Source: an uncultured Gammaproteobacteria bacterium (GTDB lineage Bacteria; Patescibacteriota; Patescibacteriia; Magasanikbacterales; GWA2-37-8). From it: a stretch of DNA of 64,000 bases. Both the position numbers and the translations under genes were made by a program. The notes beneath the pieces were generated by a model, which was given only the letters and a program-made list of their open reading frames with translations, searched no databases and was not told where the DNA came from. Where the stretch lies: positions 185,474 through 249,473 of the forward strand of contig CAZBWU010000001.1 of NCBI GenBank assembly GCA_964496095.1, in the 5' to 3' direction. Below are positions 18,178 through 63,801 of the stretch, in pieces (the stretch's first letter is position 1; each line of letters starts with the position of its first letter).

Positions 18178-18316
18178 TGTCATTCTGAGCTGAGCGAAGA
18201 ATCTCTGTCCGTGCAATTGTCATTCCCGCCAAAGCGGAAATCCAGACAATTTAAACACTGGATTCCCAATCAAGTTGGGAATGACAGAGATCCTTCGGCT
18301 ACGCTCAGGATGACAG
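18178..18316. repeat. Composite/nested copy of TGTCAT-TIR miniature element family (inner copy 18218-18286 with perfect 10-bp TIR TGTCATTCCC/GGGAATGACA)
   Basis: TGTCATTCTGAGC..GAAGAATCTCTGTCC module, then TGTCATTCCC...GGGAATGACA, then GAGATCCTTCGG...CTCAGGATGACAG; same modules recur at 11 other sites in the window. Confidence 0.8.
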
Positions 18317-18388
18317 GTAAATGTATGTCCGACCCCAGTACCAGAGCCACAAGAGTGGCTCGGTACGGGGCAAGTTTTGTTCACTATT

Positions 18389-21300: not shown

Positions 21301-21883
21301 GGCTTATCAAGAAATAATGAAAGACACTCTCATACCCCTCAAAGATTTGTCAGCTCAGCCTCGTAATCAGTGGGTGGTAGTAGGGGGAATGCTTGATTCA
21401 ACTAAGAAAAAAATTACGCGTAGTGGCAAGGCCATGATGTTTGCAAAATTGCTCGATACTACCAGCAGCTTGGAATTATTGGTTTTTCCAAAGACTTACG
21501 AAACCACAGCGGCTATTTGGGTGGAAGGTAGACCGGTGTGTGTGATTGGTCGCACTTCGGAAGAAGAAGGAGATGATAAATTGTTTGTAGAAAAAGCCTA
21601 TGTACTGACCAAAGAAAATGCGGCTACCTTGGCCAAGCAAATGTCTTTTGGTAAAAGTTATGAAACAAAAAAAGAGCCCGAACCAATTAGTTTTGCATTT
21701 GAAATTGCGGTTAGCCCAGAGCAATTAAAATCTCAAGCTGAAGCGATAAAAAATATTTTGAGTCAATATCCGGGGGATGAAGCTGTAATACTCAAGGTGG
21801 GAGATAAAATTATTCGAACTTCTTATAGAGTTGATGGTTCGGAAGAATTAAGAAACGAACTTGCAACCATTGTTTCCAATTAA
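18389..21883 (+). CDS. dnaE: DNA polymerase III alpha subunit
   Basis: 1165 aa from ATG 18389 (ORF track begins at an upstream TTG); N-terminal PHP domain (HLHVHSHYSLLDA), Pol III alpha core, OB-fold. Confidence 0.93.
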   Translation: MDFVHLHVHSHYSLLDALPKIDELVDHAKKLGYKSLALTDHGNMYGTIEFYEACQKAGIKPIIGMEAYLVVGSRFDKNNRDEKIYHQVLLAENNIGYKNLMKLASLASLEGFSDKPRLDKELLKQYHEGLVALSGCFAGEIPTILQRDDNFDKAKNVALEYQEIFGKDNFYLELMDLPALEGQMDMNTKLIQLSAETGIPMVVTRDSHYLEEDEAEAQDVLTCIRDGKTMDEDGRATMNGVDYSLAPAKEIINRFKHVPEAISNTVKIADRANVTIELNKWHFPHLNIPDGKTVDEYLREQVYEKLPKRIEMTEEVKKRADYELDIIAKKGYSPYFLTVADYINYAREHRIMVTTRGSAAGSVVSFAMGIVMDNPLYFKLPFERFLNPFRPSPPDIDGDFADDRRDEMIAYVTKKYGADKVAQIITFGTMAARGSVRDVGRALGYSYSFCDQISKLIPFGAQGFQMTIAKALTLEPELKKLYDKNAEVKRLLDLAQKVEGCARHTSIHAAGVVISPTPLTDFTPVQLETGGDKIVTQYEMHSVETAGVLKMDFLGIRNLSILGNAVEIIEKTTDQKINVYNLYPWNDAKTYDMLARGETVGVFQLASSGMTRYLKELKPSSIFDIMAMVALFRPGPMDSIPDYILRKNNHDLIEYEDPRMKDYLDQSLGLIVYQDDVLLTAINLAGYNWEEADKFRKAMGKKIPEEMAKQKEKFFKGAKEFGKLTSETINKLWERIEPFAAYGFNKAHAASYAVVAYQTAYLKANFPVQYMTAVLIAESGDIDKVPEIIHECERMGVKVLPPDINESFKSFAMTPIAGSQERLATGQVPSAGTSVIRFGLNGIKNLGENIAEAIYQERKANGKFKDLQDFLTRVKDKDLNKKSLESLAKCGALDGFGYDRGVLLANMENILSFSKQIKEGGANTQHSLFSGTSLDAVSVLKLVNAKPANEADKLTWEKELLGFYITSHPFKAYQEIMKDTLIPLKDLSAQPRNQWVVVGGMLDSTKKKITRSGKAMMFAKLLDTTSSLELLVFPKTYETTAAIWVEGRPVCVIGRTSEEEGDDKLFVEKAYVLTKENAATLAKQMSFGKSYETKKEPEPISFAFEIAVSPEQLKSQAEAIKNILSQYPGDEAVILKVGDKIIRTSYRVDGSEELRNELATIVSN

Positions 21884-23022
21884 TTATCAATCTTCCAATT
21901 TGGATCAGCGGTTATTTTATTCCAAGAAGTAAATTCTTTTTTTAGTGCATGGTGGTATCCAGCTGTGGCAATCATCGCGCCGTTATCCATGGCGTATTTT
22001 AATTCCGGAATTTGGAAACTAATTTCAGGGAATCTTTTGGTTATTTCTGTGGCTAAGGTTTCACGCAGTTTTTTGTTGGCGCTCACACCCCCACCTAAAA
22101 TAATAGTTTTGGGTTTATGCTCTTGCGCGGCTAGCATAGTTTTGACTACCAGTACATCAATAATTGCTTGTTCAAAACTAGCGCAAAAATCATTGATAGA
22201 AATGTTTGTGGCGACTTGTTTGTCATTCTGAGGAAGAGAAGCGATAGAAGAATCTATTCCTTTTAATTGAGATTGATTTGTTGTTTCGTTTAGGGTTGTA
22301 GGTAAAATGTGGTTATCCCTTAACCAATAAAGCGCTGAAGTTTTTAATCCTGAGAAACTAAAATTATAATCACCGCTATTTATCATCGGTCTAGGAAAGT
22401 TTATAGCATCAGTTTTGCCCTCTAAGGCAAGTTTGGAAATTTGTGGTCCGCCAGGATAGGTGAGGCCAATTAGTTTGGCCACTTTATCAAAACATTCACC
22501 AGCGGCGTCGTCTTTGGTAGAGCCAAGTATTTTGTAATCACCATGATTCTTCATGAGAATTAATTCGGTGTGTCCGCCACTAACGATTAAGGCTAGAGCC
22601 GGGAAATATATTTTTTTACTGTCATTCTGAGGGAGAGAAGCGGCTGAAGAATCTCTGTCTTGGATTTGTGTGGAGTATATGTGTCCTTCAATATGGTTGG
22701 TAGAAACAAGTGGAATATCCCAAGCATAAGAAAGAACGCGCGCGGCCTCAACGCCTACGAGCAGTCCCGTAATGAGTCCTGGCCCAGAAGTGACAGCTAT
22801 GGCGTCTGGCTTTGGTTGGTTTTCGAGCACTGCCTCAATAAGTGGGACGATTTTTTCCGCATGCATACGTCCAGCAATTTCTGGAACCACACCGCCATAT
22901 TTTTTATGCACATCAATTTGGGAAGCGGTTTTTTCTGATAAAACAAAACAGCCTTTGTCCGAACAATCGAGCAAGGCAATAGACGTGTCATCACAAGATG
23001 ATTCAATACCGAGGATTAGCAT
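21880..23022 (-). CDS. tsaD: tRNA N6-adenosine threonylcarbamoyltransferase TsaD
   Basis: 380 aa; MLILGIESSCDDTSIALL start, HxEGH metal motif (NHIEGHIY), SGGV..N motifs; contains two in-frame repeat-element insertions. Confidence 0.9.
   Translation of the reverse strand: MLILGIESSCDDTSIALLDCSDKGCFVLSEKTASQIDVHKKYGGVVPEIAGRMHAEKIVPLIEAVLENQPKPDAIAVTSGPGLITGLLVGVEAARVLSYAWDIPLVSTNHIEGHIYSTQIQDRDSSAASLPQNDSKKIYFPALALIVSGGHTELILMKNHGDYKILGSTKDDAAGECFDKVAKLIGLTYPGGPQISKLALEGKTDAINFPRPMINSGDYNFSFSGLKTSALYWLRDNHILPTTLNETTNQSQLKGIDSSIASLPQNDKQVATNISINDFCASFEQAIIDVLVVKTMLAAQEHKPKTIILGGGVSANKKLRETLATEITKRFPEISFQIPELKYAMDNGAMIATAGYHHALKKEFTSWNKITADPNWKIDN
22221..22260. repeat. TGTCAT-TIR element module, in-frame inside tsaD
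   Basis: TGTCATTCTGAGGAAGAGAAGCGATAGAAGAATCTATTCC; encodes extra peptide ...GIDSSIASLPQNDKQ... in TsaD. Confidence 0.8.
22620..22659. repeat. TGTCAT-TIR element module, in-frame inside tsaD
   Basis: TGTCATTCTGAGGGAGAGAAGCGGCTGAAGAATCTCTGTC; encodes extra peptide ...QDRDSSAASLPQNDSKK... after the HxEGH motif. Confidence 0.8.
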
Positions 23023-27124: not shown

Positions 27125-29548
27125 TTAAAAAGGCAGATTTGAAGTATTAAAAACTATAATTCGACGACCAAAACTAGGGTCAGATATGTAAAGTTTTTTA
27201 TTGGCCTGGTCAAAAGTAAGCGAGTGAGGCATATTAATTGCCGATGTGTCATGTTGGAACCAGTTGTTGGCGGTAAAATCAGTTTGACCCAACACGCCTA
27301 TGGCTGGTTCGCCATTATTTATGGTATTTACATCAAATACTAACACTCGATTGCGGTAATCTGATACATATAAAATATTACTTTCCGAATCAAGTGCAAC
27401 GCCATCAGGAATCGCCATGTTGTTGTCGGAAGTAACTAGGCTATAAACGTTGCTATTAAAATCAGTTTGACCCAATACACCGATAGCTGGTTCGCCATTA
27501 TTTATGGTATTTACATCGAAAGCAAGTACTCGATTATTCACAAAATCTGCTGTGTAAAGAATGTTTCTATTTTTATCAAGAGTAAGCGCAGTTGGGCTCC
27601 ATAGAGTGGTCGCGTTGGGAGTAGCCATGCCTTGGTTTGGTAATCCGTTGTTAAAATCATTTTGTCCTAAGACTGCAATCGCTGGCTCGCCATTAGTTAC
27701 TTGGTGTATGTCAAAAATCATAACCCGACTATTTCCCCATTCAGATATATAAAGTAGTTGGCGTTTAATATCAATTGTTGCAGCTACAGGACCGTTAAAT
27801 GTGTTATTGCGTATACCTGGTTTATTAGTACCGGTAAAACTATCGTTTCCTAACACGGCAATTGCCGCCTCGCCATCGGTGATTGTGCTTACATCATAGA
27901 TTAGCACCCGGTTATTATAACCATCAACGACAATTAGTTGATTATTTTTGCCGTTATAAGCTACCCCCATTGGTTGAGACAGTGTTTTAGCAGTCATAAC
28001 TCCGCCTTGGTTGAATCCACTGGAATAGAAATTATTTTGTCCTAAAACGTTGTCGGCATGATAATCAATCAAGTTGTTATTAATGTCAAGATTAAAAACT
28101 AAGACACGATTGTCAAATGTATCAACCACAAATAGTCTATGATTTTTAATATCAATGGCGGTTCCGTATACAGAATCAAATCCGTAATCGTTTACTATTT
28201 CACTATTGGTCCCAGCTTGTTGGAATGATAATTGGCCAGTATGGTCAATTTGACCAAGGAGACCTATAGCCGGTTCATCATTATTTATAGTACTAACATC
28301 AAAAATCATTACTCGACTGTAGCTGGCATCGGCAACATATAATCTATTATGTCCATCAAGCGCAAGTCCTTTTGGTGATGCCATGGTATGGTTGCTTAAG
28401 GGTCGAGGTAAACTACTATTTAAATCAGGCTGGCCTAGTACGGCTATAGCACTGTCGCCATTATGAATATTACTTGCGTCAAAAATCATTACGCGGTCTG
28501 TTGGTGGATTTGCATCTGAAATGTATAACAGGTGGTTGGTATTGTCATAGACAATCCCAAGAGGTTCGCCAATGGTTGTTTTTGAGGTCGGTTGAAGATT
28601 GCCAGAAACAAAATCCTGTTGTCCCAAAACATATGTTGCTTCTTCGCCATTGGCTATATTGCTCGTGTCATATCCTAATGCACGGTGGTTGCCAAAGTCT
28701 ACAACAAAGAGAATATCGCGATCGAAATCATACGTGATATTGATAGGCATATATAAAGTTCGTGCAGATACAGGGCCACCTTGATTTTCTAGATGGGCAA
28801 GCAAATTATTTTGACCAAGCACCGCTATCGCAGGTTCGCCGTTATCGATAGTAGACACATCAAAAACCGCTACGCGATTTTTGCCTGTGTCTGCAACATA
28901 GAGAATACTACCTTTTGTATTTAGAGTGACTCCTTGAGGCAAAATGAGATGAGTAGTTTGTTCGGAGGTGTCATAGACAAAAGATGCGTCTGTGAATTCT
29001 TTTGGTCCGAGCACTGCCACGGCCTGTTCGCCATTATCTATAATAGCTGTGTCATATATCAATACGCGATTATTTCCTGAATCAGCGACATAGAGGAGAT
29101 TTCTATCTTGGTCAAACGCTAATTGGCGAGGGTAATCCAATGTATCTGCATTGGTCTGACCTCCTCGGTTTGCAAGATGCCCTTCGAAATCAGCTTGTCC
29201 TAACACGTAGCTTGCCGTATGGCTCAGTGGTTTGTAACTTTGTGGGTCAAGCAGGAAAACCATTACTCTACTATTTTGTGTATCGGATATAAACAATCTT
29301 GCATTATTTTTATCAATGATCATATTTTGTGCTTCATCAAAAGCAAAGTCACTGATAGGTGTGCCATGGTCTTGCCACTGGTTGAAATTTGGTTGTCCAG
29401 CCTGTGTTAGTTGGCCTATTACCTGTACAGCCGGCAAAAGTAGGGCATTAGCAGGGGATTGGAACCCAAACAATCCACTTGTGGCTAAAAGAGAAAAAAG
29501 ACTTAGATTAGCCAACATTTTAAAGGTCAAATTGTGTTTGTTTACCAT
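27125..29548 (-). CDS. Secreted NHL-repeat beta-propeller protein
   Basis: 807 aa; signal peptide; at least 15 tandem NHL-type repeats (YVADSGNNRVLIYD, YVADTGKNRVAVFD, FVVDFGNHRALGYD, YVADASYSRVMIFD, IVVDGYNNRVLIYD, YISEWGNSRVMIFD ...). Confidence 0.75.
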   Translation of the reverse strand: MVNKHNLTFKMLANLSLFSLLATSGLFGFQSPANALLLPAVQVIGQLTQAGQPNFNQWQDHGTPISDFAFDEAQNMIIDKNNARLFISDTQNSRVMVFLLDPQSYKPLSHTASYVLGQADFEGHLANRGGQTNADTLDYPRQLAFDQDRNLLYVADSGNNRVLIYDTAIIDNGEQAVAVLGPKEFTDASFVYDTSEQTTHLILPQGVTLNTKGSILYVADTGKNRVAVFDVSTIDNGEPAIAVLGQNNLLAHLENQGGPVSARTLYMPINITYDFDRDILFVVDFGNHRALGYDTSNIANGEEATYVLGQQDFVSGNLQPTSKTTIGEPLGIVYDNTNHLLYISDANPPTDRVMIFDASNIHNGDSAIAVLGQPDLNSSLPRPLSNHTMASPKGLALDGHNRLYVADASYSRVMIFDVSTINNDEPAIGLLGQIDHTGQLSFQQAGTNSEIVNDYGFDSVYGTAIDIKNHRLFVVDTFDNRVLVFNLDINNNLIDYHADNVLGQNNFYSSGFNQGGVMTAKTLSQPMGVAYNGKNNQLIVVDGYNNRVLIYDVSTITDGEAAIAVLGNDSFTGTNKPGIRNNTFNGPVAATIDIKRQLLYISEWGNSRVMIFDIHQVTNGEPAIAVLGQNDFNNGLPNQGMATPNATTLWSPTALTLDKNRNILYTADFVNNRVLAFDVNTINNGEPAIGVLGQTDFNSNVYSLVTSDNNMAIPDGVALDSESNILYVSDYRNRVLVFDVNTINNGEPAIGVLGQTDFTANNWFQHDTSAINMPHSLTFDQANKKLYISDPSFGRRIIVFNTSNLPF

Positions 29549-46723: not shown

Positions 46724-46930
46724 TTAGTTTACTTCCGGTGGTATTATGGGCTGCTTGTCATCGTCTTTTTTGGGATTAGGATTATCTACTACAGGTACTA
46801 TCCCAATTTCAAGTGGCACTTGTGCAGGATTTTCTATCTCTCTTTGCCTTCTGTTTCTATCGGCTTTCTCACCATCGGGAATTTCTGGCATAATCTTAGG
46901 CATCCACCATTCTGGTTTTGGAATAGACAT
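46724..46930 (-). CDS. Small Pro-rich hypothetical protein
   Basis: 68 aa ORF immediately downstream of truB on same strand; weak. Confidence 0.25.
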   Translation of the reverse strand: MSIPKPEWWMPKIMPEIPDGEKADRNRRQREIENPAQVPLEIGIVPVVDNPNPKKDDDKQPIIPPEVN

Positions 46931-46934
46931 ATAT

Positions 46935-47675
46935 TTATTTTAAAGTATCTAAGTTAATAGCATTAGTTAGTAAGTAGTCACCAATCTGAGTACGAACCAA
47001 TTCTTGGCAAAAGGCGCCGGTGCCAAGCTTTTGGCCAAGGTCGTGAGCAAGGGTCCGGATATATGTTCCTGCCGAACATTGTACCTCTATTTTTAAAACA
47101 GGCCAAGTGTAATCCAAAAGTTTAATTTCATAAATTTCTATCTCGTTTGGTTGGCGTTCTACTTCTATGCCTTTGCGGGCGAGGGTGTATAATCTTTGGC
47201 CGTTTATTTTTTTAGCAGAAAACATCGGCGGGATTTGGAGTTGTTTGCCTGTAAAAGATTTTATTGCCTCTAGGATTTGCTCTTCGGTTATTGTTTTTGG
47301 GTTATTCGTTTTTTCTATTTTTCCAGTTTTGTCGTAAGTATCGCTAGTTTCTCCGAATTTGATGGTGGCAATATAAATTTTTTTCATTCTTTTAAATTCG
47401 TCTAAGTTTCTGGTAGATTCTCGTCCAACGCCGATAATTAATAATCCAGTGGCAAAAGGATCAAGTGTTCCTGCATGACCGACTCGGAGTTTTTTTGGGC
47501 TGTTATTCTGAGGCTCTGCCGAAGAATCCCTTTCGTTTGGTTTTAAGGGATCCTTTACGGAGTTTATCCCCTTTGGGGGGTTCAGGATGACACCGTTCCT
47601 AACTTTATTACGTACAAAAGCTACAGCATCAAAGCTGGTCCAACCTTCGGGTTTGTTGATGAGTAGGAATGACAT
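46935..47675 (-). CDS. truB: tRNA pseudouridine(55) synthase TruB
   Basis: 246 aa; catalytic motif GHAGTLDPFATG; contains an in-frame repeat-element insertion upstream of the catalytic Asp region. Confidence 0.88.
   Translation of the reverse strand: MSFLLINKPEGWTSFDAVAFVRNKVRNGVILNPPKGINSVKDPLKPNERDSSAEPQNNSPKKLRVGHAGTLDPFATGLLIIGVGRESTRNLDEFKRMKKIYIATIKFGETSDTYDKTGKIEKTNNPKTITEEQILEAIKSFTGKQLQIPPMFSAKKINGQRLYTLARKGIEVERQPNEIEIYEIKLLDYTWPVLKIEVQCSAGTYIRTLAHDLGQKLGTGAFCQELVRTQIGDYLLTNAINLDTLK
47501..47592. repeat. TGTCAT-TIR element copy, in-frame inside truB
   Basis: TGTTATTCTGAGGCTCTGCCGAAGAATCCC...GGGATCCTTTACGG...TTCAGGATGACA; encodes extra loop ...ILNPPKGINSVKDPLKPNERDSSAEPQNNSPKK... 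in TruB. Confidence 0.8.
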
Positions 47676-47782
47676 ATGTTTATAACCATATTATGGATGA
47701 ATTTTGGAGAAAGGGCAATGGGGTAAAATTGACTTTTCATCCTTTATTCTATATACTTAGATTTATTCTAATCTAAAATCCT

Positions 47783-49814: not shown

Positions 49815-49922
49815 TGTCATTCCGAACCCTTATTTTTATGGGGTGAGGAATCTATTCCTATTAAATTATAAAATAATTCAGTATAGATCCCTCGTCGGCT
49901 ACGGCCTCGCTCGGGATGACAA
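49815..49922. repeat. TGTCAT-TIR element copy (intergenic infB-trxA)
   Basis: TGTCATTCCGAACCC...GAGGAATCTATTCC...GATCCCTCGTCGGCTACGGCCTCGCTCGGGATGACAA. Confidence 0.8.
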
Positions 49923-50411: not shown

Positions 50412-50460
50412 TGTCATTCTGAACAGAGTGAAGAATCCCTCCACTACGGTCGGGATGACA
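50412..50460. repeat. Minimal (49-nt) TGTCAT-TIR element copy immediately 5' of leuS
   Basis: TGTCATTCTGAACAGAGTGAAGAATCCCTCCACTACGGTCGGGATGACA - both termini present. Confidence 0.8.
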
Positions 50461-50469
50461 AAAAAATCT

Positions 50470-53400
50470 ATGAAGAAATACGACCCAAAAAAAATAGAAG
50501 CAAAATGGCAAAAGTATTGGGAGAAAAATAAAACTTTTGAAGTTACGGAAGATCCAAAGCGTGAGAAGTTTTATGGTTTGATTGAGTTTCCTTATCCAAG
50601 TGGGGAAGGTTTGCACGTCGGGCATCCGCGTTCAAACACAGCGATGGATGTTATTTCCCGTAAGAAAAGAATGGAAGGAAAAAATGTTTTGTTCCCGATC
50701 GGGTTTGATGCGTTTGGATTACCAACTGAAAATTTTGCAATCAAAACAGGTAAGCCACCAGCCGAAGTGACCAAAAAAAATATTGCCAATTTTACTCGTC
50801 AGCTCAAAATGCTTGGTTTTAGTTTTGACTGGTCCAGGCAAGTTGACACTACCGATCCGCAATACTACAAATGGACTCAGTGGTTATTTTTGCAATTTTT
50901 CAAACACGGACTAGCTTATAAAAAAAATCAACCGATTAACTGGTGTCCGAAAGATAAAATTGGTTTGGCTAATGAAGAAGTTGTGGGCGGTTGTTGTGAG
51001 CGGTGTGGTACGCCGGTAGAAACAAAAAATAAAGAACAGTGGATGCTCGCTATTACCAAGTATGCTGACAAGCTTTTGGCAGGCCTAAAAGATGTAGATT
51101 ATATTGAGCGCGCTCGATTGCAACAAGAAAATTGGATTGGTAAAAGTGAAGGCGCCGAAGTTGTTTTTCCTTTGCGTGTGTCTGGACAAGTTGACGGCAA
51201 ATACACCGTAAAAGTTTTTACTACTCGTCCTGATACTATTTTTGGCGCAACTTTTATTGCTATCTCCGCCGACTTGGCCAAGGAGTGGGTTGGAGCTGGT
51301 TGGAGTCCAAGCGAAGAAATAAAAAATTATATTACTGAAGTTTTAAAAGTCCGCACTACGACCAACACTCGTGAAGAGCAAGAAAAAACTGGAGTCAGTG
51401 CTGGGGTAATGGCTATCAATCCAGTTTCAAAAGAAGAAATTCCAGTTTGGATTACCAATTATGTAATGGGTGGAGTAGGCACGGGTGCGATTATGGGAGT
51501 ACCAGCGCACGATGAACGCGATTTTGATTTTGCGAAGAAGTTTGGCTTGTCTGTTAAGCAAGTAGTAAAAAATCTAAATGAAAAACCAAAGTATTTAGTT
51601 TTTGATTTTGATGGGGTGATTGGGGATACGATTGAAGAGGGCGTTAAGGTAAATATGGCTCTTGATACAATTTCTGAAGAACAAGCAAGAAAAAATATAC
51701 ATGAGTATTTTAGCAGGAAGCCAAGCCATGCAAAGGGCCATACTTTGACTGATGATGAGTTAGAGAAGAGAGCTGATTGGATAAAAAGGTATGGTGAAAT
51801 AATGTTTAAATTAAACCCACCTCTGTTTGATGATTTTATTAAGGCTATAAAAAATATATCAAACATAAAGATTGCGGTAATTTCCGCCGGTTCAGGTTTG
51901 TATATCAAAAATCGTATGCCTGAGACTGATTTAAACCCGACTCATGTTTTGACATACGAAGACCACCATTCAAAGGAACAAAAAATCGAGCAGGTATGTA
52001 AGGATTGGGGAGTGTCTATGCAAGATGTATATTATTTTACTGATACCAAAGCGGATGTCTATGAACTAGAAAATTGCTTAGATAGAAAAAAAATTATTGG
52101 TTGTGCTTGGGGTTATTCCGGTTATGATGGTTTGCGTGAACTTTTGCCGGAAAATCAAGTGTTGAAAAATTTTACTGATATAAATAATCTGTTTACAGAT
52201 GGACCGTATACCGAAGATGGTGTAGCGGTTAATTCCGATTTTCTCAATGGTCTAAAAACAGATGAAGCTAAAATAAAAATGATAAGTTGGTTGGAAGAAA
52301 ATAAAATTGGTAAGAAACAAATAAATTATAAACTACGTGATTGGGTATTTTCTCGCCAGCGTTATTGGGGTGAGCCGATTCCACTTGTATATTGTGAAAA
52401 ATGTGCTGGCTGGATTCCGCTACCTGAGAGCGAACTACCTCTTAAACTTCCTAAAGTAGAAAAATATCAACCAACAGACAATGGCGAATCACCGCTCGCC
52501 GCCATGGAAAAATGGGTAAAGACAAAATGTCCGCAGTGTGGCGGTCCGGCCAGAAGAGAAACAGATACGATGCCAAATTGGGCAGGCTCTTCTTGGTATT
52601 TCTTGGCCTATGCTTTGGGTGGGGAAAAAGGTTTGAAAGAGAGAGGTGATAAGTTTTGGGATAAAGAATTATTAAAACAGTGGATGCCGATAGATTGGTA
52701 TAATGGGGGAATGGAACATACGGTTTTACACCTACTTTATTCTCGTTTTTGGAATATATTTTTGCATGATATTGGACTGGTGCCTACAAGTGAGCCGTAT
52801 AAAAAACGCACTTCCCACGGCATGATCTTGGCCAAAGGCGGAGAGAAGATGAGCAAGTCAAAAGGCAATGTGGTGAATCCCGATGAGATGGTAGAGCAGT
52901 TTGGCGCGGATGCCCTGCGTACCTATATTATGTTTATGGGTCCGTTTGATCAGGCAGTGGAGTGGGATACGAATGGGTTAATAGGAGTGAAACGATTTTT
53001 GGATAAGGTGTGGAATTATGCTATCGATAGATTACCTTCGGTTCCCAAGGAACGGAGGGATACAAGTGCCTTGACTAAGCTTCATCAAACAATTAAGAAA
53101 GTTAGTGAAGGTATTGATTCTATGAAATTCAATACCGCAATTGCATCGATGATGGAGTTTATGAATACTATTTATAAACCACTTGAAGATGGTAAGGTTG
53201 TTAGCGAGCCAGCGCCACTTATCGGTGAGCAAGATTTTATTAAGTTTTTAAAATTACTTTCTCCTTTTGCTCCACATATGTGTGAAGAAATTTGGAGTCA
53301 GCTTGGAAACAAAAACACTTTGGTCTTTGAACCTTGGCCAGAATACGATGAGGCCTTGACCAAAGAAAGTGAAATTACACTAGCTGTACAAGTAAATGGG

Positions 53401-53556
53401 AAATTGCGCGATACGATAACGGTACAGGCTGATATCTCGGAGGAAGAAGCAAAGAAAATAGTTTTGGCTAGTGAGAAAATTCAGAAGTGGTTGGAAGGCA
53501 AAGAACCCAAGAAAATTATTTACGTAAAAGGGAAGTTGGTGAGTATGGTTGTTTAA
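50470..53556 (+). CDS. leuS: Leucine--tRNA ligase with inserted HAD-like domain
   Basis: 1028 aa from ATG 50470 (MKKYDPKKIEAKWQKYW; ORF track start 50428 lies inside the repeat element); HIGH-region (PYPSGEGLHVGH), editing domain (TTRPDT), KMSKS; extra about 200-aa HAD-like segment between VPAHDERDFDFA and the NYKLRDW region. Confidence 0.9.
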   Translation: MKKYDPKKIEAKWQKYWEKNKTFEVTEDPKREKFYGLIEFPYPSGEGLHVGHPRSNTAMDVISRKKRMEGKNVLFPIGFDAFGLPTENFAIKTGKPPAEVTKKNIANFTRQLKMLGFSFDWSRQVDTTDPQYYKWTQWLFLQFFKHGLAYKKNQPINWCPKDKIGLANEEVVGGCCERCGTPVETKNKEQWMLAITKYADKLLAGLKDVDYIERARLQQENWIGKSEGAEVVFPLRVSGQVDGKYTVKVFTTRPDTIFGATFIAISADLAKEWVGAGWSPSEEIKNYITEVLKVRTTTNTREEQEKTGVSAGVMAINPVSKEEIPVWITNYVMGGVGTGAIMGVPAHDERDFDFAKKFGLSVKQVVKNLNEKPKYLVFDFDGVIGDTIEEGVKVNMALDTISEEQARKNIHEYFSRKPSHAKGHTLTDDELEKRADWIKRYGEIMFKLNPPLFDDFIKAIKNISNIKIAVISAGSGLYIKNRMPETDLNPTHVLTYEDHHSKEQKIEQVCKDWGVSMQDVYYFTDTKADVYELENCLDRKKIIGCAWGYSGYDGLRELLPENQVLKNFTDINNLFTDGPYTEDGVAVNSDFLNGLKTDEAKIKMISWLEENKIGKKQINYKLRDWVFSRQRYWGEPIPLVYCEKCAGWIPLPESELPLKLPKVEKYQPTDNGESPLAAMEKWVKTKCPQCGGPARRETDTMPNWAGSSWYFLAYALGGEKGLKERGDKFWDKELLKQWMPIDWYNGGMEHTVLHLLYSRFWNIFLHDIGLVPTSEPYKKRTSHGMILAKGGEKMSKSKGNVVNPDEMVEQFGADALRTYIMFMGPFDQAVEWDTNGLIGVKRFLDKVWNYAIDRLPSVPKERRDTSALTKLHQTIKKVSEGIDSMKFNTAIASMMEFMNTIYKPLEDGKVVSEPAPLIGEQDFIKFLKLLSPFAPHMCEEIWSQLGNKNTLVFEPWPEYDEALTKESEITLAVQVNGKLRDTITVQADISEEEAKKIVLASEKIQKWLEGKEPKKIIYVKGKLVSMVV

Positions 53557-53916: not shown

Positions 53917-55545
53917 ATGCTCAAGGAGGGGCTAGAACAAATCATCAAGAGCAAAAGTAAAACATTTCTCGCGTTTTGTTTTTGTTTTATTTTAGGCGCA
54001 GGTATTTTTTCTTTGTTTGAAGGCAAAGAATTTTTGTTTTATCTCCATATTTTATTATTTGCAATTTTGTTTTTTGTTATTATCTTCTGGTCAAAAAAAG
54101 AGTATCGGTTTTATTGTCTATGTCTGTTAGTTTTTGTGTTAGGTGGAATTAGATTTTTCCTGACAATTCCTGGGAAAGATGCAGATAGGATAGATTTTTA
54201 TAATGGTAGTAAAAAGATTATTAAAGGGTTTGTGGTGCGTGAACCGGATATTGGAGTAAGTGATGCGAGGTATGTGGTGCGGGTAGAAGCAATCGCTAAT
54301 CAGCCTGTCATTACGATGACGAAGGAGGAATCTCTGTCCAAATCAAAAATTAGACAGAGATCCCTCCGGGGCGTAAACCCCACTCAGGATGACAATCAGA
54401 GAGAGCGAGCCTCGGGAAATATTATGATTAAGACGTTAATTTATCCCGAATATAAATATGGCGATCAATTGGAAGTTAGTTGCCTTCTTCAAGAACCAAC
54501 AAATTTTGCAGATAGTGATTTCAATTATAAAAAATATCTAGCCAAACAAGATGTGTGGTCAACTTGTGCCAATCCGCAAATAAAAAAGGTGGGTGCAGGT
54601 AAAGGCAATTTTTTTATCAGTGCAATGTTGAAAATGAAAAGTAGAATAACTTTGCAGATGGCCAAACTTTGGCCTGAGCCAAGCAATAGTCTGATGGCCG
54701 GGATTTTATATGGCGCTCGCAGCGGTTTGCCCGATGATTTAACAACTAATTTTAGTCGTACGGGTGTGACTCATATTGTCGCTGTTTCCGGATATAATGT
54801 GAGTATCATAGTTGTAGTTTTAAATTCAATTTTAATTTATCTTGGATTATTTCGTAAACAATCTTTTTGGTCCTTAGTATTTTTGATTTTAGCCTTTGTC
54901 TTTTTCACTGGCGCTACCGCTTCGGTCGTGCGAGCGGGAATAATGGCGGTGATTGTTTTATTGTCTCAATATTTGGGTCGGCTATCGGCGGTGGGTAGGG
55001 TACTTGTCTATGCGGTTGTGGTGATGCTTATTTTTAATCCCTATCTGTTGATGTGGGATGCGGGCTTTCAGTTATCATTCCTGTCTACTTTGGGGTTGGT
55101 TTATTTGGTGCCTATTTTTGAGCCATTGACTGAAAAGATAAAAGTGACTGGTACTAGCGTGATGTTACTTGAAGTTTTTACGACCACGATGGCTGCGATT
55201 ATGGCTACTATGCCGTTAATTATGCATCAGTTTGGGAGGTTTTCGGTGGTGGCGCCTTTAGTAAATATTTTGGTTTTGTGGATTATTCCTTGGCTGATGT
55301 TGTTTGGGTTTTTGTCTTTGATTTTAAGCCTTGTATTTTTTCCGTTGGGTCAGCTGGTTGCCTGGGTGGCGGGTTTGGGAGTACGATATGTTATAATTGT
55401 TGTAGATTGGTTTGGAAATAAAAGTTGGAGTGCGGTTGATATGAAGATTTCTTTATTAACGATGATATTTATTTATCTCGTACTTATACTTTTTGTCACC
55501 AAAAAGTATCAAAAAGTGTTGGGGCGGCAGAACTCGCCTCATTAA
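53917..55545 (+). CDS. comEC: ComEC/Rec2 competence channel protein (membrane part; DUF4131 + competence domain)
   Basis: 542 aa; many TM helices; competence-domain signature region GILYGARSGLPDDL...TGVTHIVAVSGYNVSII; carries in-frame repeat-element insertion. Confidence 0.8.
   Translation: MLKEGLEQIIKSKSKTFLAFCFCFILGAGIFSLFEGKEFLFYLHILLFAILFFVIIFWSKKEYRFYCLCLLVFVLGGIRFFLTIPGKDADRIDFYNGSKKIIKGFVVREPDIGVSDARYVVRVEAIANQPVITMTKEESLSKSKIRQRSLRGVNPTQDDNQRERASGNIMIKTLIYPEYKYGDQLEVSCLLQEPTNFADSDFNYKKYLAKQDVWSTCANPQIKKVGAGKGNFFISAMLKMKSRITLQMAKLWPEPSNSLMAGILYGARSGLPDDLTTNFSRTGVTHIVAVSGYNVSIIVVVLNSILIYLGLFRKQSFWSLVFLILAFVFFTGATASVVRAGIMAVIVLLSQYLGRLSAVGRVLVYAVVVMLIFNPYLLMWDAGFQLSFLSTLGLVYLVPIFEPLTEKIKVTGTSVMLLEVFTTTMAAIMATMPLIMHQFGRFSVVAPLVNILVLWIIPWLMLFGFLSLILSLVFFPLGQLVAWVAGLGVRYVIIVVDWFGNKSWSAVDMKISLLTMIFIYLVLILFVTKKYQKVLGRQNSPH
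54306..54394. repeat. TGTCAT-TIR element copy, in-frame inside comEC
   Basis: TGTCATTACGATGACGAAGGAGGAATCTCTGTCC...GACAGAGATCCCTCCGGGGCGTAAACCCCACTCAGGATGACAA; encodes ...EESLSKSKIRQRSLRGVNPTQDDNQ... Confidence 0.8.
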
Positions 55546-58727: not shown

Positions 58728-59948
58728 ATGTCAGAGATAACAAAAGCAATTCAGATGTTATGCGAGGAAAAAGGTCTTTCTACCGAATCGGTCATGGAGG
58801 CAATTGAGTTTGCTTTAGCTGCTGCTTATCGCAAAGATTTTGGTAATAAACAGCAAAATATCAAAGTGCAATTCAATCCAGAAAACGGCGATATGAAAGC
58901 TTGGGATGTCAAAACGGTAGTAGAGGATATTTCTGAAGAAGATCTAGAAGCAGCTCAGACCGAGCTTGCAGCGCGACGTGAAAAAGCCAAGGAAGAAAAA
59001 AGAGAGTTGACTGAAGAAGAAACTGCGGATTTGGTTCACTTTAATCCAAAAACAGAATTGATGATTACCTCTGCCAAAGAGATTGATAAGAAAGTAAAAT
59101 TGGGAGAGGTGATGGAAATTCCTTTGGAGATTACCCATGAGTTTGGTCGTATGGCTGCTCAGACTGCCAAGCAGGTAATTATCCAAAAAATCCGTGAAGC
59201 GGAAAGAGGTATCATGTTTAATGACTTCAAAGGCCAAGAAGGCCAATTGGTTATGGGTACAATTCAGCGCGCTGAAGCTCGCAAAGTTTTGGTTGATTTT
59301 GGTAAAGTGACCGGTGTATTGTTAGCTGATCAACAAAATAGCCGTGATAGATATAAACCAGGCGCTCGCATGAAGTTTTATTTATTATCTGTACAGATGA
59401 GTCCTCGCGGACTTGAGGTTCTATTGTCTCGCAGTGATGTGGGTATGGTTCGTGAAATTTTCAAACAAGAAATTCCTGAAATTAATGATGGTCTAATAGA
59501 AATAAAAGGTGTGGCTCGTGAAGCCGGTTTCCGTTCCAAAGTATCTGTCTCAACCAATGACAAATCTATTGATCCAATCGGATCTTGTATCGGTCAAAGA
59601 GGTAGTAGAATAAACACTATTATTGAAGAGTTGGGCGGAGAAAAGATTGATATTATTCAGTATAGTGAAAATACGGCTGAATATATTGCTCACGCTTTGG
59701 CGCCAGCAAAAATCTTGAATGTAAAATTAGATGAAGCTAATAAAGTGGCGGAAGTGAGTGTGGCTGCCGATCAATTTTCTTTAGCCATTGGTCGTAGCGG
59801 ACAAAATGTACGTCTCGCTGCTGATATGACTGGTTGGAGAATAGATGTGGTTGAAGATGGAGGTAAGCAGGAACTATCCAGTGATGAAGTGAAAGCGGAA
59901 GAAGTCGCTCCTGAAGTTGTTGAGGTAGAAGAAAAAAAGGAGGAGTAA
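58728..59948 (+). CDS. nusA: Transcription termination/antitermination protein NusA
   Basis: 406 aa; N-terminal RNAP-binding domain, S1 domain, two KH domains (GxxG: IGQRGSRI, IGRSGQNV), acidic tail. Confidence 0.92.
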   Translation: MSEITKAIQMLCEEKGLSTESVMEAIEFALAAAYRKDFGNKQQNIKVQFNPENGDMKAWDVKTVVEDISEEDLEAAQTELAARREKAKEEKRELTEEETADLVHFNPKTELMITSAKEIDKKVKLGEVMEIPLEITHEFGRMAAQTAKQVIIQKIREAERGIMFNDFKGQEGQLVMGTIQRAEARKVLVDFGKVTGVLLADQQNSRDRYKPGARMKFYLLSVQMSPRGLEVLLSRSDVGMVREIFKQEIPEINDGLIEIKGVAREAGFRSKVSVSTNDKSIDPIGSCIGQRGSRINTIIEELGGEKIDIIQYSENTAEYIAHALAPAKILNVKLDEANKVAEVSVAADQFSLAIGRSGQNVRLAADMTGWRIDVVEDGGKQELSSDEVKAEEVAPEVVEVEEKKEE

Positions 59949-59968: not shown

Positions 59969-60062
59969 TGTCATCCCGAGCGAGCCCTCAAGGGCGACGA
60001 GGGATCTTTCCGAGAAAGAGTTCTACTAACGGAAAGATTCTTCACTCCGTTCAGAATGACAG
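59969..60062. repeat. Full-length (94-nt) TGTCAT-TIR element copy (intergenic nusA-yidC)
   Basis: TGTCATCCCGAGCGAGCCCTCAAGGGCGACGAGGGATCTTTCCGAG...CGGAAAGATTCTTCACTCCGTTCAGAATGACAG; about 94 percent identical to 62676-62768. Confidence 0.85.
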
Positions 60063-61131: not shown

Positions 61132-62187
61132 ATGAATACTTCCGACTCTTTGCAATTATCGCTAAAAAAAACTTTGGCCTATTTTGATTTAGCTAATTTC
61201 CCATTGACCAAAGAAGAGTTGTATAATTTTTTGTGGGAACCGCCACAGGTTAGTTACGCTGAATTCCTGTTGTCATTGCGAGACTACACCTTTGGTGAAG
61301 GCGAAGCAATCCCACTGTTTGGTAGTGCTAACAATGGGATTGCCGCGTCGTCTCAAAAAATTGGGACTCCTCGCAATGACACAGTGAAGTCGTTCATGAT
61401 GACAGAGCAAAATGGTTATTATTTTTTATCTGGCAGAGAAGAATTGGTTGAGACCAGGCGTTGTCGGTTGCTTATTTCTGAAAATAAATTAAAGATTGCG
61501 CGTCGAGCGGCTAGGATAGTACGGTCCGTGCCATTTTTAAAAGCGATTTTTGTCTGCAATACTGTAGGTGCGGAGCAGGCAACAGAGGATAGTGATATTG
61601 ATTTTTTTATTGTAACTGAAAAAAACAGGATTTGGATTGCCCGATTGTGGGTGACTTTTTTGTTAGGACTTTTTAGATTAAGGCGAGTAAATAATCGCAT
61701 TAAGAATAAAATTTGTTTGAGTTTTTATGTGACGGCCGATAGTCTGAATCTGGCGAATTTAAGAGTGGTTGATGACGATATTCACTTTGCTTATTGGATT
61801 AATCAGATGTTACCACTATATGACCCAGAAAATTATTATGCCAAATTTTTACAAGCCAATAGTTGGACAAAAAAATATTTGCCTAATATAAAATCTGAGA
61901 AAATGAGTTCGTATATTTTTAAGATTAGCGAATCAAAGTTAGGCAGAGTTTGGAAAAGAGCTTGGGAAAAAATGTGGACTGGCGCTTATGGTGATTTGAT
62001 TAATGGTGAAGCTAAAAAAATTCAGATTTCAAAGATGAAGTTTTCCGGCAAGAAAATAGTTAGGGGAGAAGATAAGGGTGTAGTTATTTCTGATCAGATT
62101 TTGAAGTTTCACGAAAAGGATACAAGGTTGGAATATAGAGAGGCTTGGTTAAATAAAGTTAATGTTATTCCGAACGAAGGAGCTTGA
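61132..62187 (+). CDS. Hypothetical protein with Pol-beta-type nucleotidyltransferase motif
   Basis: 351 aa; G[AS]x9-13 DxD pattern (VGAEQATEDSDIDFFIV). Confidence 0.4.
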   Translation: MNTSDSLQLSLKKTLAYFDLANFPLTKEELYNFLWEPPQVSYAEFLLSLRDYTFGEGEAIPLFGSANNGIAASSQKIGTPRNDTVKSFMMTEQNGYYFLSGREELVETRRCRLLISENKLKIARRAARIVRSVPFLKAIFVCNTVGAEQATEDSDIDFFIVTEKNRIWIARLWVTFLLGLFRLRRVNNRIKNKICLSFYVTADSLNLANLRVVDDDIHFAYWINQMLPLYDPENYYAKFLQANSWTKKYLPNIKSEKMSSYIFKISESKLGRVWKRAWEKMWTGAYGDLINGEAKKIQISKMKFSGKKIVRGEDKGVVISDQILKFHEKDTRLEYREAWLNKVNVIPNEGA

Positions 62188-62200
62188 GCGATTGAGTTGA

Positions 62201-62300
62201 GCCTGCCTGCGGTAGGCAGGGAATCCCTTAAACACGGTATTTGCAATTACTATGCATAAGGGATCTTTCGACTCAGCTAAAGCCTCGCTCAAGATGACAA
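62201..62300. repeat. Hairpin (CCTGCC..GGCAGG) plus TGTCAT-TIR element module (intergenic)
   Basis: GGGAATCCCTTAAACA...ATAAGGGATCTTTCGACTCAGCTAAAGCCTCGCTCAAGATGACAA; same module as 63218-63304. Confidence 0.75.
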
Positions 62301-62307
62301 CAAACGT

Positions 62308-63801
62308 ATGATTCTTAAAAAAATAGAAAATTTATTATTGTTAGCCTTTTTGTTTTTATTGCCTTGGCAAACTAGATATATCTGGCAGGAAGGGCAATTG
62401 AGCGGCGGGCATTGGGAGTATGGCACGTTTAGTATTTATGGGACCGAGATTTTGCTTTGGATAATTATTTTATTATTTTTTTTTCGTCATTTGTTTAATA
62501 AAGAAATGCGGCAGGGCTTTTTAACTAAAAAGAAGTTTTTTATTTTTCCAGTTATTTTTTTAGGGTTAATATGGTTGTCGCTTGGTTTCAGTGAAAATTT
62601 TTGGGTGTCATATCAGTATGTATTTAGATGGTTGGGGGCGATAGCCATGGCGATTGTGTTAACCAACCACACAAATGTCATCCCGAGCGAGCCCTCAAGG
62701 GCGACGAGGGATCTTTCCGAGAAAGAGCCTGTTAACGGAAAGATTCTTCACTCTGTTCAGAATGACAGTAAATTGTTTGCCTTATGGCTTAGCGCTGTAG
62801 TCCAAGGCCTGCTGGCAGTTTATCAATTTTTAACTCAGCATGTCTTTGCGAGTAAGTGGTTGGGAATGTCGGCGCAAGATGCGATGCAGGGCGGAGCGAG
62901 TGTGGTGGAGTTTGCAGATCAAAGATGGCTGCGCGCTTATGGTAGTTTTGGTTCGCCAAATTCTTTGGGGATATATTTGGCAGTGTTGTTAGTCTTGGGT
63001 TTTATTTTATATGTTAAAACCGAACGACCGTTTTATAAAATTTTAATTAGTGTCGGGCAATTAATTATTTTATCTGGCTTGCTGTTTTCTTTTTCTCGAG
63101 GAGCCTGGCTATCGGCTATAGTGGGCATAATTTGTTTGGCTGTCATTGTTTTTGTTGCCGGCTGTCATTCTGAGCAAGGCGAAGAATCTCTGTCCAACCA
63201 CTTGTCATTCCGACCGAAGTGGAGGAATCCCTTAAACAAAATACTTGCAAAGACGATGGATAAGGGATCCCTCGGCTTCGCTACGGTTCCGCTCGAGATG
63301 ACAATGCGAAAAGATTTTATTAAACAAGTTATTTTTATTTTAGTCTTAACTGGTTTTTGGGTAGGAATATTTTTTCCTATATTTAGCGCGCGATTTAATA
63401 TTCATAATCGGTTAGAAGTTTATTCTATCGCTGAAAGACAAAGCCAATATAAAGAATCTTTATCATTTATAAAGAACAAACCATTTTTTGGAGTAGGGCC
63501 AGCTCTCTATACATATACAGTCTCAAAAAAATATCCTAAATTAGCCTCATGGCAATTCCAGCCGGTTCATAATATTTATGTGTTGGCTGCGGTGGATTTC
63601 GGTGTTGTTTTTGTATTATTTTTGGGTTTAATTTTCTTAAGTTTAATTAAAAAAGTTTTTAAAAATAATCTTATTTTTCTTCCAGTTTTATTTACCTTGC
63701 TTATGGCCGGGCTCTTCGACCACTGGCTTTTTAGCATGTTTACAGGCCTTGTTTTTTACTGGGCTATTATTGGTTTAGGACAGGATAAGGTGAACTCTTG
63801 A
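62308..63801 (+). CDS. O-antigen ligase/polymerase (Wzy_C)-like integral membrane protein
   Basis: 497 aa; about 10 TM helices; periplasmic loop with FSRGAWLS-type Wzy_C signature; two in-frame repeat-element insertions. Confidence 0.6.
   Translation: MILKKIENLLLLAFLFLLPWQTRYIWQEGQLSGGHWEYGTFSIYGTEILLWIIILLFFFRHLFNKEMRQGFLTKKKFFIFPVIFLGLIWLSLGFSENFWVSYQYVFRWLGAIAMAIVLTNHTNVIPSEPSRATRDLSEKEPVNGKILHSVQNDSKLFALWLSAVVQGLLAVYQFLTQHVFASKWLGMSAQDAMQGGASVVEFADQRWLRAYGSFGSPNSLGIYLAVLLVLGFILYVKTERPFYKILISVGQLIILSGLLFSFSRGAWLSAIVGIICLAVIVFVAGCHSEQGEESLSNHLSFRPKWRNPLNKILAKTMDKGSLGFATVPLEMTMRKDFIKQVIFILVLTGFWVGIFFPIFSARFNIHNRLEVYSIAERQSQYKESLSFIKNKPFFGVGPALYTYTVSKKYPKLASWQFQPVHNIYVLAAVDFGVVFVLFLGLIFLSLIKKVFKNNLIFLPVLFTLLMAGLFDHWLFSMFTGLVFYWAIIGLGQDKVNS
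62676..62768. repeat. TGTCAT-TIR element copy (93 nt = 31 codons), in-frame inside Wzy-like gene
   Basis: Near-identical to intergenic copy 59969-60062; encodes ...VIPSEPSRATRDLSEKEPVNGKILHSVQNDSK... Confidence 0.85.
63163..63304. repeat. Composite TGTCAT-TIR element copy (142 nt), in-frame inside Wzy-like gene
   Basis: TGTCATTCTGAGCAAGGCGAAGAATCTCTGTCC + TGTCATTCCGACC...GGAATCCCTTAAACA...GGGATCCCTCGGCTTCGCTACGGTTCCGCTCGAGATGACAA; encodes ...CHSEQGEESLSNHLSFRPKWRNPLNKILAKTMDKGSLGFATVPLEMTMRKD... Confidence 0.85.

Follow-up and report, generated by a model that had tools for sequence, protein, structure and literature searches.

Repetitive extragenic palindromes (REPs) tagged with the tetranucleotide CGTC form a superfamily of four families, CGTC-1 to CGTC-4 (Di Nocera, De Gregorio & Rocco 2013, BMC Genomics 14:522; PMC3733652). 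That survey describes these repeats as hairpins with stems of 8–9 bp that carry complementary A and T at stem positions one and two, loops of 4–5 nt (atypical in some species) and a CCA tail, arranged mostly as inverted dimers and with no dedicated transposase. TGTC takes the place of the tag in many repeats, CCTC is also an accepted variant, and the hosts span five phyla, the candidate phyla radiation (CPR) not being among them. The peptides that these REPs encode are listed as VIPAKAGI, CHSRESGNP, SFPRKRES, DSRFRGND and IPAFAGMT, and REPs are placed within truB, the gene for tRNA pseudouridine-55 synthase, in S. maltophilia, S. alaskensis (aa 169–177) and E. litoralis (aa 164–190). Here we analysed a 64,000-nt stretch of DNA (the window, whose coordinates are used throughout) and found that its truB gene contains a 92-nt inverted dimer of TGTC-tagged palindromic modules, in frame.

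A second precedent comes from the Rickettsia palindromic elements (RPEs): in a bacterium with a small genome, numerous housekeeping genes that are unrelated to each other carry these repeats in frame and read them as additional peptide segments (Ogata et al. 2000 Science 290:347; Ogata 2002). The two classes overlap: R. conorii RPE-6 and RPE-4 are CGTC-1 and CGTC-4 repeats, respectively, and the same survey recalls that R. conorii truB carries RPE-1 (PMC3733652). In-frame fusions of RPEs are described as highly frequent in a 2024 review (PMC10969869), and a guanylate kinase (gmk) that bears an RPE is known to be both translated and active (Abergel 2006, in the summary given by PMC2229807).

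From the evidence below, we consider it likely that a REP-type dimer of the CGTC superfamily, tagged with TGTC, lodged in a linker of TruB in the ancestor of a Candidatus Magasanikbacteria subclade, was read straight through and was tolerated.

A tagged palindromic dimer in frame within truB

The gene and its element are organized as follows.

46935..47675, minus strand: truB, 246 aa, tRNA pseudouridine-55 synthase catalytic domain without a PUA domain (Pfam, homology and structure search)
47501..47592, minus strand: two TGTC-tagged hairpin modules as an inverted dimer, tags outward, 92 nt, in frame as TruB aa 28–59
47547..47592, minus strand: Module B, first in the coding direction, TGTC-ATCCT-GAACCCCCCAAAGGGGATAAACTCCGTAA-AGGAT-CCC, encoding (G)VILNPPKGINSVKDP
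47531..47546, minus strand: 16-nt spacer between Modules A and B
47501..47530, plus strand: Module A, TGTT-ATTCTGAGGC-TCT-GCCGAAGAAT-CCC, whose coding strand encodes RDSSAEPQNN

The open reading frame (ORF) at 46935–47675 is a bona fide TruB. It matches TruB_N (PF01509) at 1.9e-52 over aa 63–206 and also TruB_C_2, its top match among solved structures is T. maritima TruB (phmmer, 3e-42), and the signature motifs KPEGWTS (aa 8), GHAGTLD72P (aa 66) and GTYIR (aa 203) are undamaged. The PUA domain is likewise missing from its CPR orthologs. The nearest named homologs come from Candidatus Magasanikbacteria (Patescibacteria/CPR), and the identical protein is on record on three contigs from NCBI and Logan sources. 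The phmmer alignment misplaced the insert onto the true N-terminus of the T. maritima protein. Directly downstream of truB lies a 68-aa ORF (46724–46930, minus strand) with no Pfam match, and a small ORF of 64–78 aa is called at the matching position in other truB loci with gene tables.

An earlier note on this DNA, made from the sequence alone, had identified the ORF as TruB, had placed a repeat-element copy at 47501–47592 and had attributed about 30 extra residues to it. Its translation is exact, and these claims stand as well. The terminal motif of the element, TGTYATYCYGA, has 20 matches in the window compared to 0.22 expected from shuffled sequences, and the element supplies TruB aa 28–59 (GVILNPPKGINSVKDPLKPNERDSSAEPQNNS) as 30 whole codons plus two split ones. 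The insert ends 13 residues before the catalytic Asp72, and tryptic peptides NGVILNPPK, DPLKPNER and DSSAEPQNNSPK are expected of the insert-bearing protein.

On the plus strand, the element starts with TGTTATTCTGA and ends with TCAGGATGACA, which are inverted copies of one 11-nt terminal motif. Each module combines five perfect base pairs, a GA mismatch pair and three more base pairs, and ends in a CCC tail; the loops measure 3 nt and about 25 nt, the longer one (Module B) holding a small CCCC/GGGG hairpin of its own. In the RNA fold, the module tails and neighbouring stem bases pair over the spacer to form an 11-bp central helix, and the whole element folds as one long imperfect hairpin (−30.1 kcal/mol, z = −2.66). 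At the Rfam gathering threshold, only two tRNAs were matched and no family was assigned to the element. A 30-mer from the element, with up to three mismatches allowed, matches the truB copy alone in the window; the truB element is therefore a diverged family member rather than an identical copy, and the family had to be located through its degenerate termini. Because 92 nt is not divisible by three, the net gain of the gene cannot equal the stretch from TGT to ACA exactly.

We built an AlphaFold2 model of the window TruB with the ortholog alignment, which has a confident core (mean pLDDT of 83.4) and superposes on E. coli TruB bound to T-arm RNA (1K8W; Foldseek TM of 0.74, E = 1.4e-22). Residues 27–60 are modelled as coil, with pLDDT below 50 at aa 38–57, and sit between helix 14–26 (alpha-1) and strand 65–68, which runs to Asp72; the insert thus maps to the interval between N-terminus and catalytic motif where the earlier note had placed it. 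The model predicts that the insert is a disordered external loop with the TruB core kept, and pseudouridine-synthase topology suggests that this loop faces away from the RNA substrate. As with RPEs, in-frame placement within a conserved gene appears compatible with the fold of the protein, here in the predicted model.

The repeat family and its described relatives

The window contains about 25 modules of 25–46 nt at 12 loci, which sum to 1,092 nt (1.7% of the window). Besides the truB copy, these loci are listed below.

18178..18315, plus strand: intergenic, dnaE leader; outer dimer with a nested inner dimer at 18218–18286
22221..22253, plus strand: single module in tsaD, in frame, aa 252–268 (...GIDSSIASLPQNDK)
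22620..22652, plus strand: single module in tsaD, in frame, aa 119–135 (...DRDSSAASLPQNDS)
49815..49921, plus strand: intergenic dimer, infB-trx spacer
50412..50460, plus strand: compact 49-nt dimer, leuS leader
54330..54394, plus strand: partial element in the comEC-like gene 53917–55545, in frame (...RSLRGVNPTQDD)
59969..60061, plus strand: intergenic 93-nt dimer, nusA-yidC spacer
61271..61381, plus strand: dimer of the TGTCATTGCGAG subtype, in frame in the uncharacterised ORF 61132–62187 (no Pfam match)
62163..62299, plus strand: dimer over the 3' end of ORF 61132–62187, giving its last residues NVIPNEGA and the stop codon
62676..62767, plus strand: dimer of 92 nt, aa 123–154 of the Wzy_C (O-antigen-ligase-like) gene 62308–63801, in frame
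63163..63304, plus strand: 142-nt composite element in the same Wzy_C gene, in frame, aa 286–333 (CHSEQGEESLS...LEMT)

The general unit opens with TGTC and a stem that begins with AT and continues with three bases that vary; in most cases GA comes next, and then a variable loop, the stem arm that complements the first, and a tail rich in C. All modules start with TGTC right before the stem, with TGTT at two decayed ends, including that of Module A in truB; the tails are CCA in the copies at 18218 and 18262, CCC in both truB modules and CTC or CTT in others. The stems covary. Their own 5-nt stem complement is found no more than 57 nt downstream for 17 of the 20 tag-only matches, in four stem types (ATTCT, ATCCC, ATTCC and ATCCT), compared to 9 of 60 cases when the complement of a mismatched stem type is sought. 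The three matches without a complement are chance matches at 6391 and 6809 (Clp ATPase gene) and the truncated copy at 54394, while the stems of all 17 paired modules open with AT and close with AT. Dimers with their tags outward occupy 9 of the 12 loci. The inner dimer at 18218–18286 reads TGTC-ATTCCCGC-CAAA-GCGGAAAT-CCA and is of the CGTC-1 type; its two modules (18218–18243 and 18262–18286) have 8-bp stems with loops CAAA and CTTGA.

Five loci are intergenic or lie over a gene end (18178–18315, 49815–49921, 50412–50460, 59969–60061 and 62163–62299), and the other seven are wholly within ORFs, all in frame: truB, tsaD (two), ORF 61132–62187 and two membrane-protein genes, the comEC-like gene and the Wzy_C gene (two). 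Against a coding density of 92%, 7 of 12 is a significant depletion from genes (P = 0.0018); despite this depletion, the genic share of the family is far above that usual for REPs. In the preferred frames, the tagged 5' end is read as V-I-L/P... and the 3' end as ...RDSS-x-QND. Both tsaD modules (ORF 21880–23022, minus strand) read as ...DSS..SLPQND, in the same frame as in TruB. One of the six frames of an element always contains TGA, and the enrichment of open frames is mild (15 of 54, compared to 9.8 +/- 2.4); consequently, we do not claim that the family is strongly 'pre-adapted' for coding.

One pair of copies bears on how such frames stay open. The genic copy at 62676–62767 and the intergenic copy at 59969–60061 are near-identical except in the central loop, with 52 nt that are 100% identical to 59969–60020, and in that loop the intergenic copy has a TAA in the frame used by the gene, which the genic copy lacks. 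The pair suggests recent activity of the family followed by a filter for translatability.

The closest described system is the CGTC superfamily. Shared features are the unpaired tetranucleotide tag, the stem starting with A-T/T-A pairs, a short C-rich tail that has the published CCA in some copies, a predominance of inverted dimers with structured spacers, copies inside genes with dimers encoding 20–30 aa, and the lack of a dedicated transposase. The CGTC-1 format is followed exactly by the copy at 18218, whose VIPAKAEI corresponds to the published VIPAKAGI, the tags-outward dimers of the window have the arrangement behind VIPAKAGI...IPAFAGMT, and the module peptides match the published table of REP peptides. 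In contrast, the host phylum is Patescibacteria/CPR, most modules in the window have a 5-bp perfect stem, a GA/GA-type mismatch, further pairs, loops of 3 to about 25 nt and a CCC or CTC tail, the TruB insertion lies in the alpha1-beta2 linker, and the intragenic share is much higher (7 of 12 loci). RPEs share with the window the in-frame placement in many unrelated housekeeping genes and the use of truB as a host, and two of their families are themselves CGTC REPs. Unlike the window copy, RPE-1 is longer (105–146 bp) and specific to Rickettsia, and the likeness drawn here is at the level of class; the host of the window is a free-living or episymbiotic CPR lineage rather than an alphaproteobacterial intracellular parasite.

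Two other classes are less similar. REP-associated tyrosine transposases (RAYTs) are IS200/IS605-like enzymes that mobilise GTAG-tagged REP doublets. As in these doublets (REPINs), the apparent unit here is an inverted hairpin doublet that forms one long hairpin, has singlets as remnants and leaves no target-site duplication; unlike them, the tag is TGTC rather than GTAG, the window has no RAYT, and REPINs are almost wholly extragenic. Miniature transposable elements with inverted repeats (MITEs), such as ERIC, Correia/NEMIS, Coxiella QMITE and the Anabaena MITEs, are also small and non-autonomous with inverted ends and can fuse in frame with ORFs. However, they carry true terminal inverted repeats from a parent insertion sequence and usually TA or other target-site duplications, and neither such duplications, at the flanks of nine dimers, nor a parent insertion sequence were found in the window.

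Our literature search for REP or palindromic insertions in CPR/Patescibacteria returned nothing relevant, and a full-text search for the terminal 11–12-mers of the element returned unrelated primers only. The modules of the truB element match the CGTC/TGTC-tagged REP superfamily, and insertions of this kind, this class of element and truB as a host had all been described before. New are the phylum, the alpha1-beta2 insertion site, the module format (GA-mismatch stems and long loops), the high intragenic fraction and the replacement of subfamilies at the same junction.

Insert turnover at one truB junction

We measured the linker from the Arg that ends helix 1 to the VGHxGTLDP motif in TruB homologs; below, L-numbers denote related contigs or loci and P-numbers ortholog proteins. 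The linker is 7 aa long in Calditrichota, Neomarinimicrobiota and other metagenome-assembled genomes outside the Magasanikbacteria, 13–19 aa in most Magasanikbacteria and 40–46 aa where element termini are present (42 aa in the window TruB); T. maritima TruB has no insert at the linker. The unrelated lineages compared therefore lack the insertion, whose presence there would have refuted the earlier note. The note had further held that in canonical TruB the catalytic Asp loop follows the N-terminal strand almost directly. Here a correction applies: helix alpha-1 (aa 14–26) precedes the insert, and TruBs free of inserts also have a short linker at this place. In an alignment of 36 homologous proteins, the linker between alpha-1 and the catalytic strand is a hotspot of variable length, a second hotspot follows TYDKTGxI, and a third is found in one ortholog.

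Elements also occupy the second hotspot in other Magasanikbacteria TruBs (L087, L132 and L011; CHPEF...MLKQVQHD type). The truB gene of P0038 (L011 6001–6972) has inserts at three sites; at the first of these, the palindrome is of another, GC-rich kind and lacks the TGTC tag.

We compared the DNA of six orthologs that bear an insert or its relic, using assemblies from ENA, JGI, NCBI and Logan. Orthologs that retain an insert at this site have proteins 63–86% identical to that of the window. Five of the six begin their element (TGTC or TGTT) at an identical left junction (between ...G and TGTC, frame V-I/V), and the sixth, L001, has a motif-less relic at the same site. All inserts are in frame: five of the element lengths are 2 mod 3, and that of L085 is 1 mod 3, for which its flank compensates. 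Among the related Magasanikbacteria the site is common to all, but the peptides differ, since each interior derives from one of several element subfamilies. L003 and L004 carry the window type (Module A is 31/33 identical in L003) and L084 a decaying copy of it. The insert of L086, another species, agrees with the intergenic copy 18218–18286 at 63/69 positions, that of L087 is 54/65 identical to the comEC copy at 54330–54394, and that of L085 is 34/38 and 41/44 identical to copies near 62163–63240 and has a different exit frame (KMT). In L001, whose truB core is 92% identical to the window, the insert segment is AT-rich, 14 codons shorter and 49% identical.

The family turns over outside truB as well. 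L003 is syntenic with the window and 85–89% identical in infB and rny; the leuS-leader copy at 50412–50460 is absent from it, and its infB-trx spacer has other palindromes in place of any detected family copy. Strict modules occur at 0.30 per kb in the window and at about zero in other phyla, where they are essentially absent, and they are missing from most other Magasanikbacteria loci.

Side by side, truB in the window (46916–47723) and in L003 (3734–4539) is 74% identical at the nucleotide level, a markedly greater divergence than that of the syntenic neighbours infB, rny and HU, which are 85–89% identical. In L003, the closest named relative, the infB-trx and trx-leuS spacers (about 955–1130 and 440–660) contain small palindromes such as ATCCCGAGAACTCGGGAT and GCGACC...GGTCGC. 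Spacer palindromes are replaced fast between genomes that are 85–89% identical in coding DNA.

We then scanned metagenome DNA for back-translated KPEGWTSFD, which avoids protein-database bias; most matches came from other phyla. The reading frame reaches GHxGTLDP in phase and free of stops at 114 of 119 truB loci, the other five being contig ends or in-frame variants of the motif, and no broken truB was seen among the 119. Spacing is canonical in 89 of the 114. Two further clear carriers of an element were found (L132 and L088), together with a long insert of uncertain origin in L170. Several metagenome-assembled genomes (L004, L005, L008–L011 and others) have a Magasanikbacteria-type TruB and synteny, yet are labelled 'uncultured Gammaproteobacteria bacterium', which is probably a labelling artefact of third-party annotation.

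A mechanism for the tolerated REP dimer can be outlined. The palindromic repeat would have entered a permissive surface linker, between alpha-1 and the strand of Asp72, in the ancestor of the subclade. It would be transcribed and translated as about 31 hydrophilic, probably disordered residues while the enzyme still works; by analogy with the RPE-bearing gmk of Rickettsia, the insert is probably made as part of TruB, and it would be neutral or nearly so. The copy may persist because the linker tolerates insertions and only open, phase-preserving copies survive, selection purging those that are out of phase, contain stops or fall in structured regions. Such selection would lead both to the depletion of the family from genes and to the repeated use of the same few TruB loops. 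As long as the family is active, the truB copy would keep its canonical hairpins or give way to a different subfamily at that junction. The most likely route is one old insertion, followed by gene conversion in which paralogous copies are the donors, or by re-insertion next to them. Conserved tags and stems make homology available for conversion, and insertion of one element into another is seen in the nested cases (18178–18315 and L132). Independent insertions at exactly the same nucleotide are less parsimonious, since the flanks of other family copies show no target consensus. Once the family is inactive, the hairpins would be lost, probably through slippage deletion of the palindromic arms, and the remnant would drift towards AT-rich sequence, always in frame.

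Several observations weigh against this account of a tolerated REP dimer. The two truB modules depart from the 8–9 bp and 4–5 nt format of the superfamily. As to the mode of spread, inspection of the flanks of nine dimers revealed no consistent target-site duplication, and no transposase (RAYT/IS200-like Y1_Tnp or DDE) is present among all ORFs of the window. As to the boundaries of the mobile unit and how phase was kept, no very closely related genome with an empty truB site was found: metagenomes scanned for an exact 26-mer gave no match, and L001 already carries a relic in its place. Finally, the window and L003 agree at 31/33 positions of Module A, compared to 76% for the gene core (P = 0.004), and the stem of Module B differs by a two-sided change (ATCCT/AGGAT to GTCCT/AGGAC); both suggest a possible constraint on the hairpin.

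A stronger version of the story is that the truB junction is more than a tolerated scar. Its re-occupation by at least four REP subfamilies, with hairpin geometry and frame kept, would imply hairpin-directed cassette exchange and possibly a selected role in mRNA or DNA; we regard this as unlikely. Somewhat less probable again is that the hairpin is kept for a nucleic-acid function, for example as an mRNA structure, about 80–170 nt past the start of the coding region, that adjusts translation or the processing of the transcript by RNase, with translation of the loop as a side effect. The stability of the RNA fold, the two hairpin comparisons with L003 and the fact that subfamily replacement always restores a hairpin dimer at the same junction all favour such a function, and REPs are thought to act as RNA elements (PMC3733652). 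Yet the same modules are dispersed in unrelated genes and spacers, the hairpins are fully eroded in the closest relative, L001, the element is missing from most Magasanikbacteria and all other phyla, and recent gene conversion from paralogous copies explains the high identity of Module A equally well.

There is a slim chance that the insert has been exapted as a functional segment, such as an additional TruB loop that binds RNA or a partner in these bacteria with reduced genomes. Its retention at one site in orthologs of such varied identity, and its position so close to the catalytic Asp, agree with exaptation, while the peptide itself shows no conservation: the junction holds several subfamilies and, in L085, another exit frame as well, the insert has decayed in L001 and L084 (to unrelated AT-rich sequence), it is predicted to be disordered, and the same peptides are present in the TsaD, ComEC and Wzy proteins.

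It is highly improbable that the 92 nt are removed or skipped, by intron-like excision or ribosomal bypass, to leave a mature TruB without the insert. A strong hairpin does form, and 92 nt is not a multiple of three if the element runs from TGT to ACA. However, the window gene and all of its orthologs, relics short by 14 codons among them, keep an open frame in the right phase, as do all 114 matches at the DNA level. The element has no Rfam match, and the genic copy at 62676 has lost the stop of its intergenic twin, which matters only if the copy is translated. Self-splicing introns of this size are not known. We rejected the intron or bypass reading on these grounds. Chance resemblance or an assembly artefact, for which one could cite the uniqueness of the exact 30-mer in the window, is refuted by the enrichment of the motif, the covariation of the stems, the identical protein on three contigs and the orthologous inserts in independent ENA, JGI, NCBI and Logan assemblies.

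Further features of the window and significance

A second, unrelated palindrome family (GACCCC...GGGGCAAGTT) is present at 20827–20872, in frame in dnaE (aa 817–832, HHH region), and at 18331–18376, just upstream of the dnaE start; the pair is 80% identical. A REP is also reported in R. conorii dnaE (Di Nocera et al., PMC3733652). Other genes of the window show extra or repeated segments of different kinds. In the leucyl-tRNA synthetase (LeuRS) gene at 50470–53556, a HAD_2 hydrolase domain is inserted right after the editing domain (about 51598–52059, aa 377–530); LeuRS homologs on related contigs have HAD at the same place, and one also has NUDIX and Ser_hydrolase domains. The ORF at 27125–29548 (minus strand, 807 aa) contains nine tandem units of about 183–195 nt (27274–29071) that are NHL/beta-propeller repeats, an ordinary repeat protein unrelated to the element. 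In nusA (58728–59948), the match to the NusA N-terminal domain covers 158 residues against a 119-position profile, which suggests about 40 extra residues.

In small genomes with a coding density of 92%, repeats have few landing places except permissive protein loops. Elements of this kind inflate and diversify CPR protein sequences, mislead local alignments and create spurious 'hypothetical protein' peptides. With palindromic repeats now seen in TruB from five or more unrelated lineages, the enzyme lends itself as a natural system to the study of which loops tolerate insertions, and subfamily replacement at the same junction offers a way to study the movement of tagged REPs without a known transposase. 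If cassette exchange proved true, then with about 58% of the loci intragenic, coding REPs could be a general, undescribed source of lineage-specific insertions in CPR proteins.

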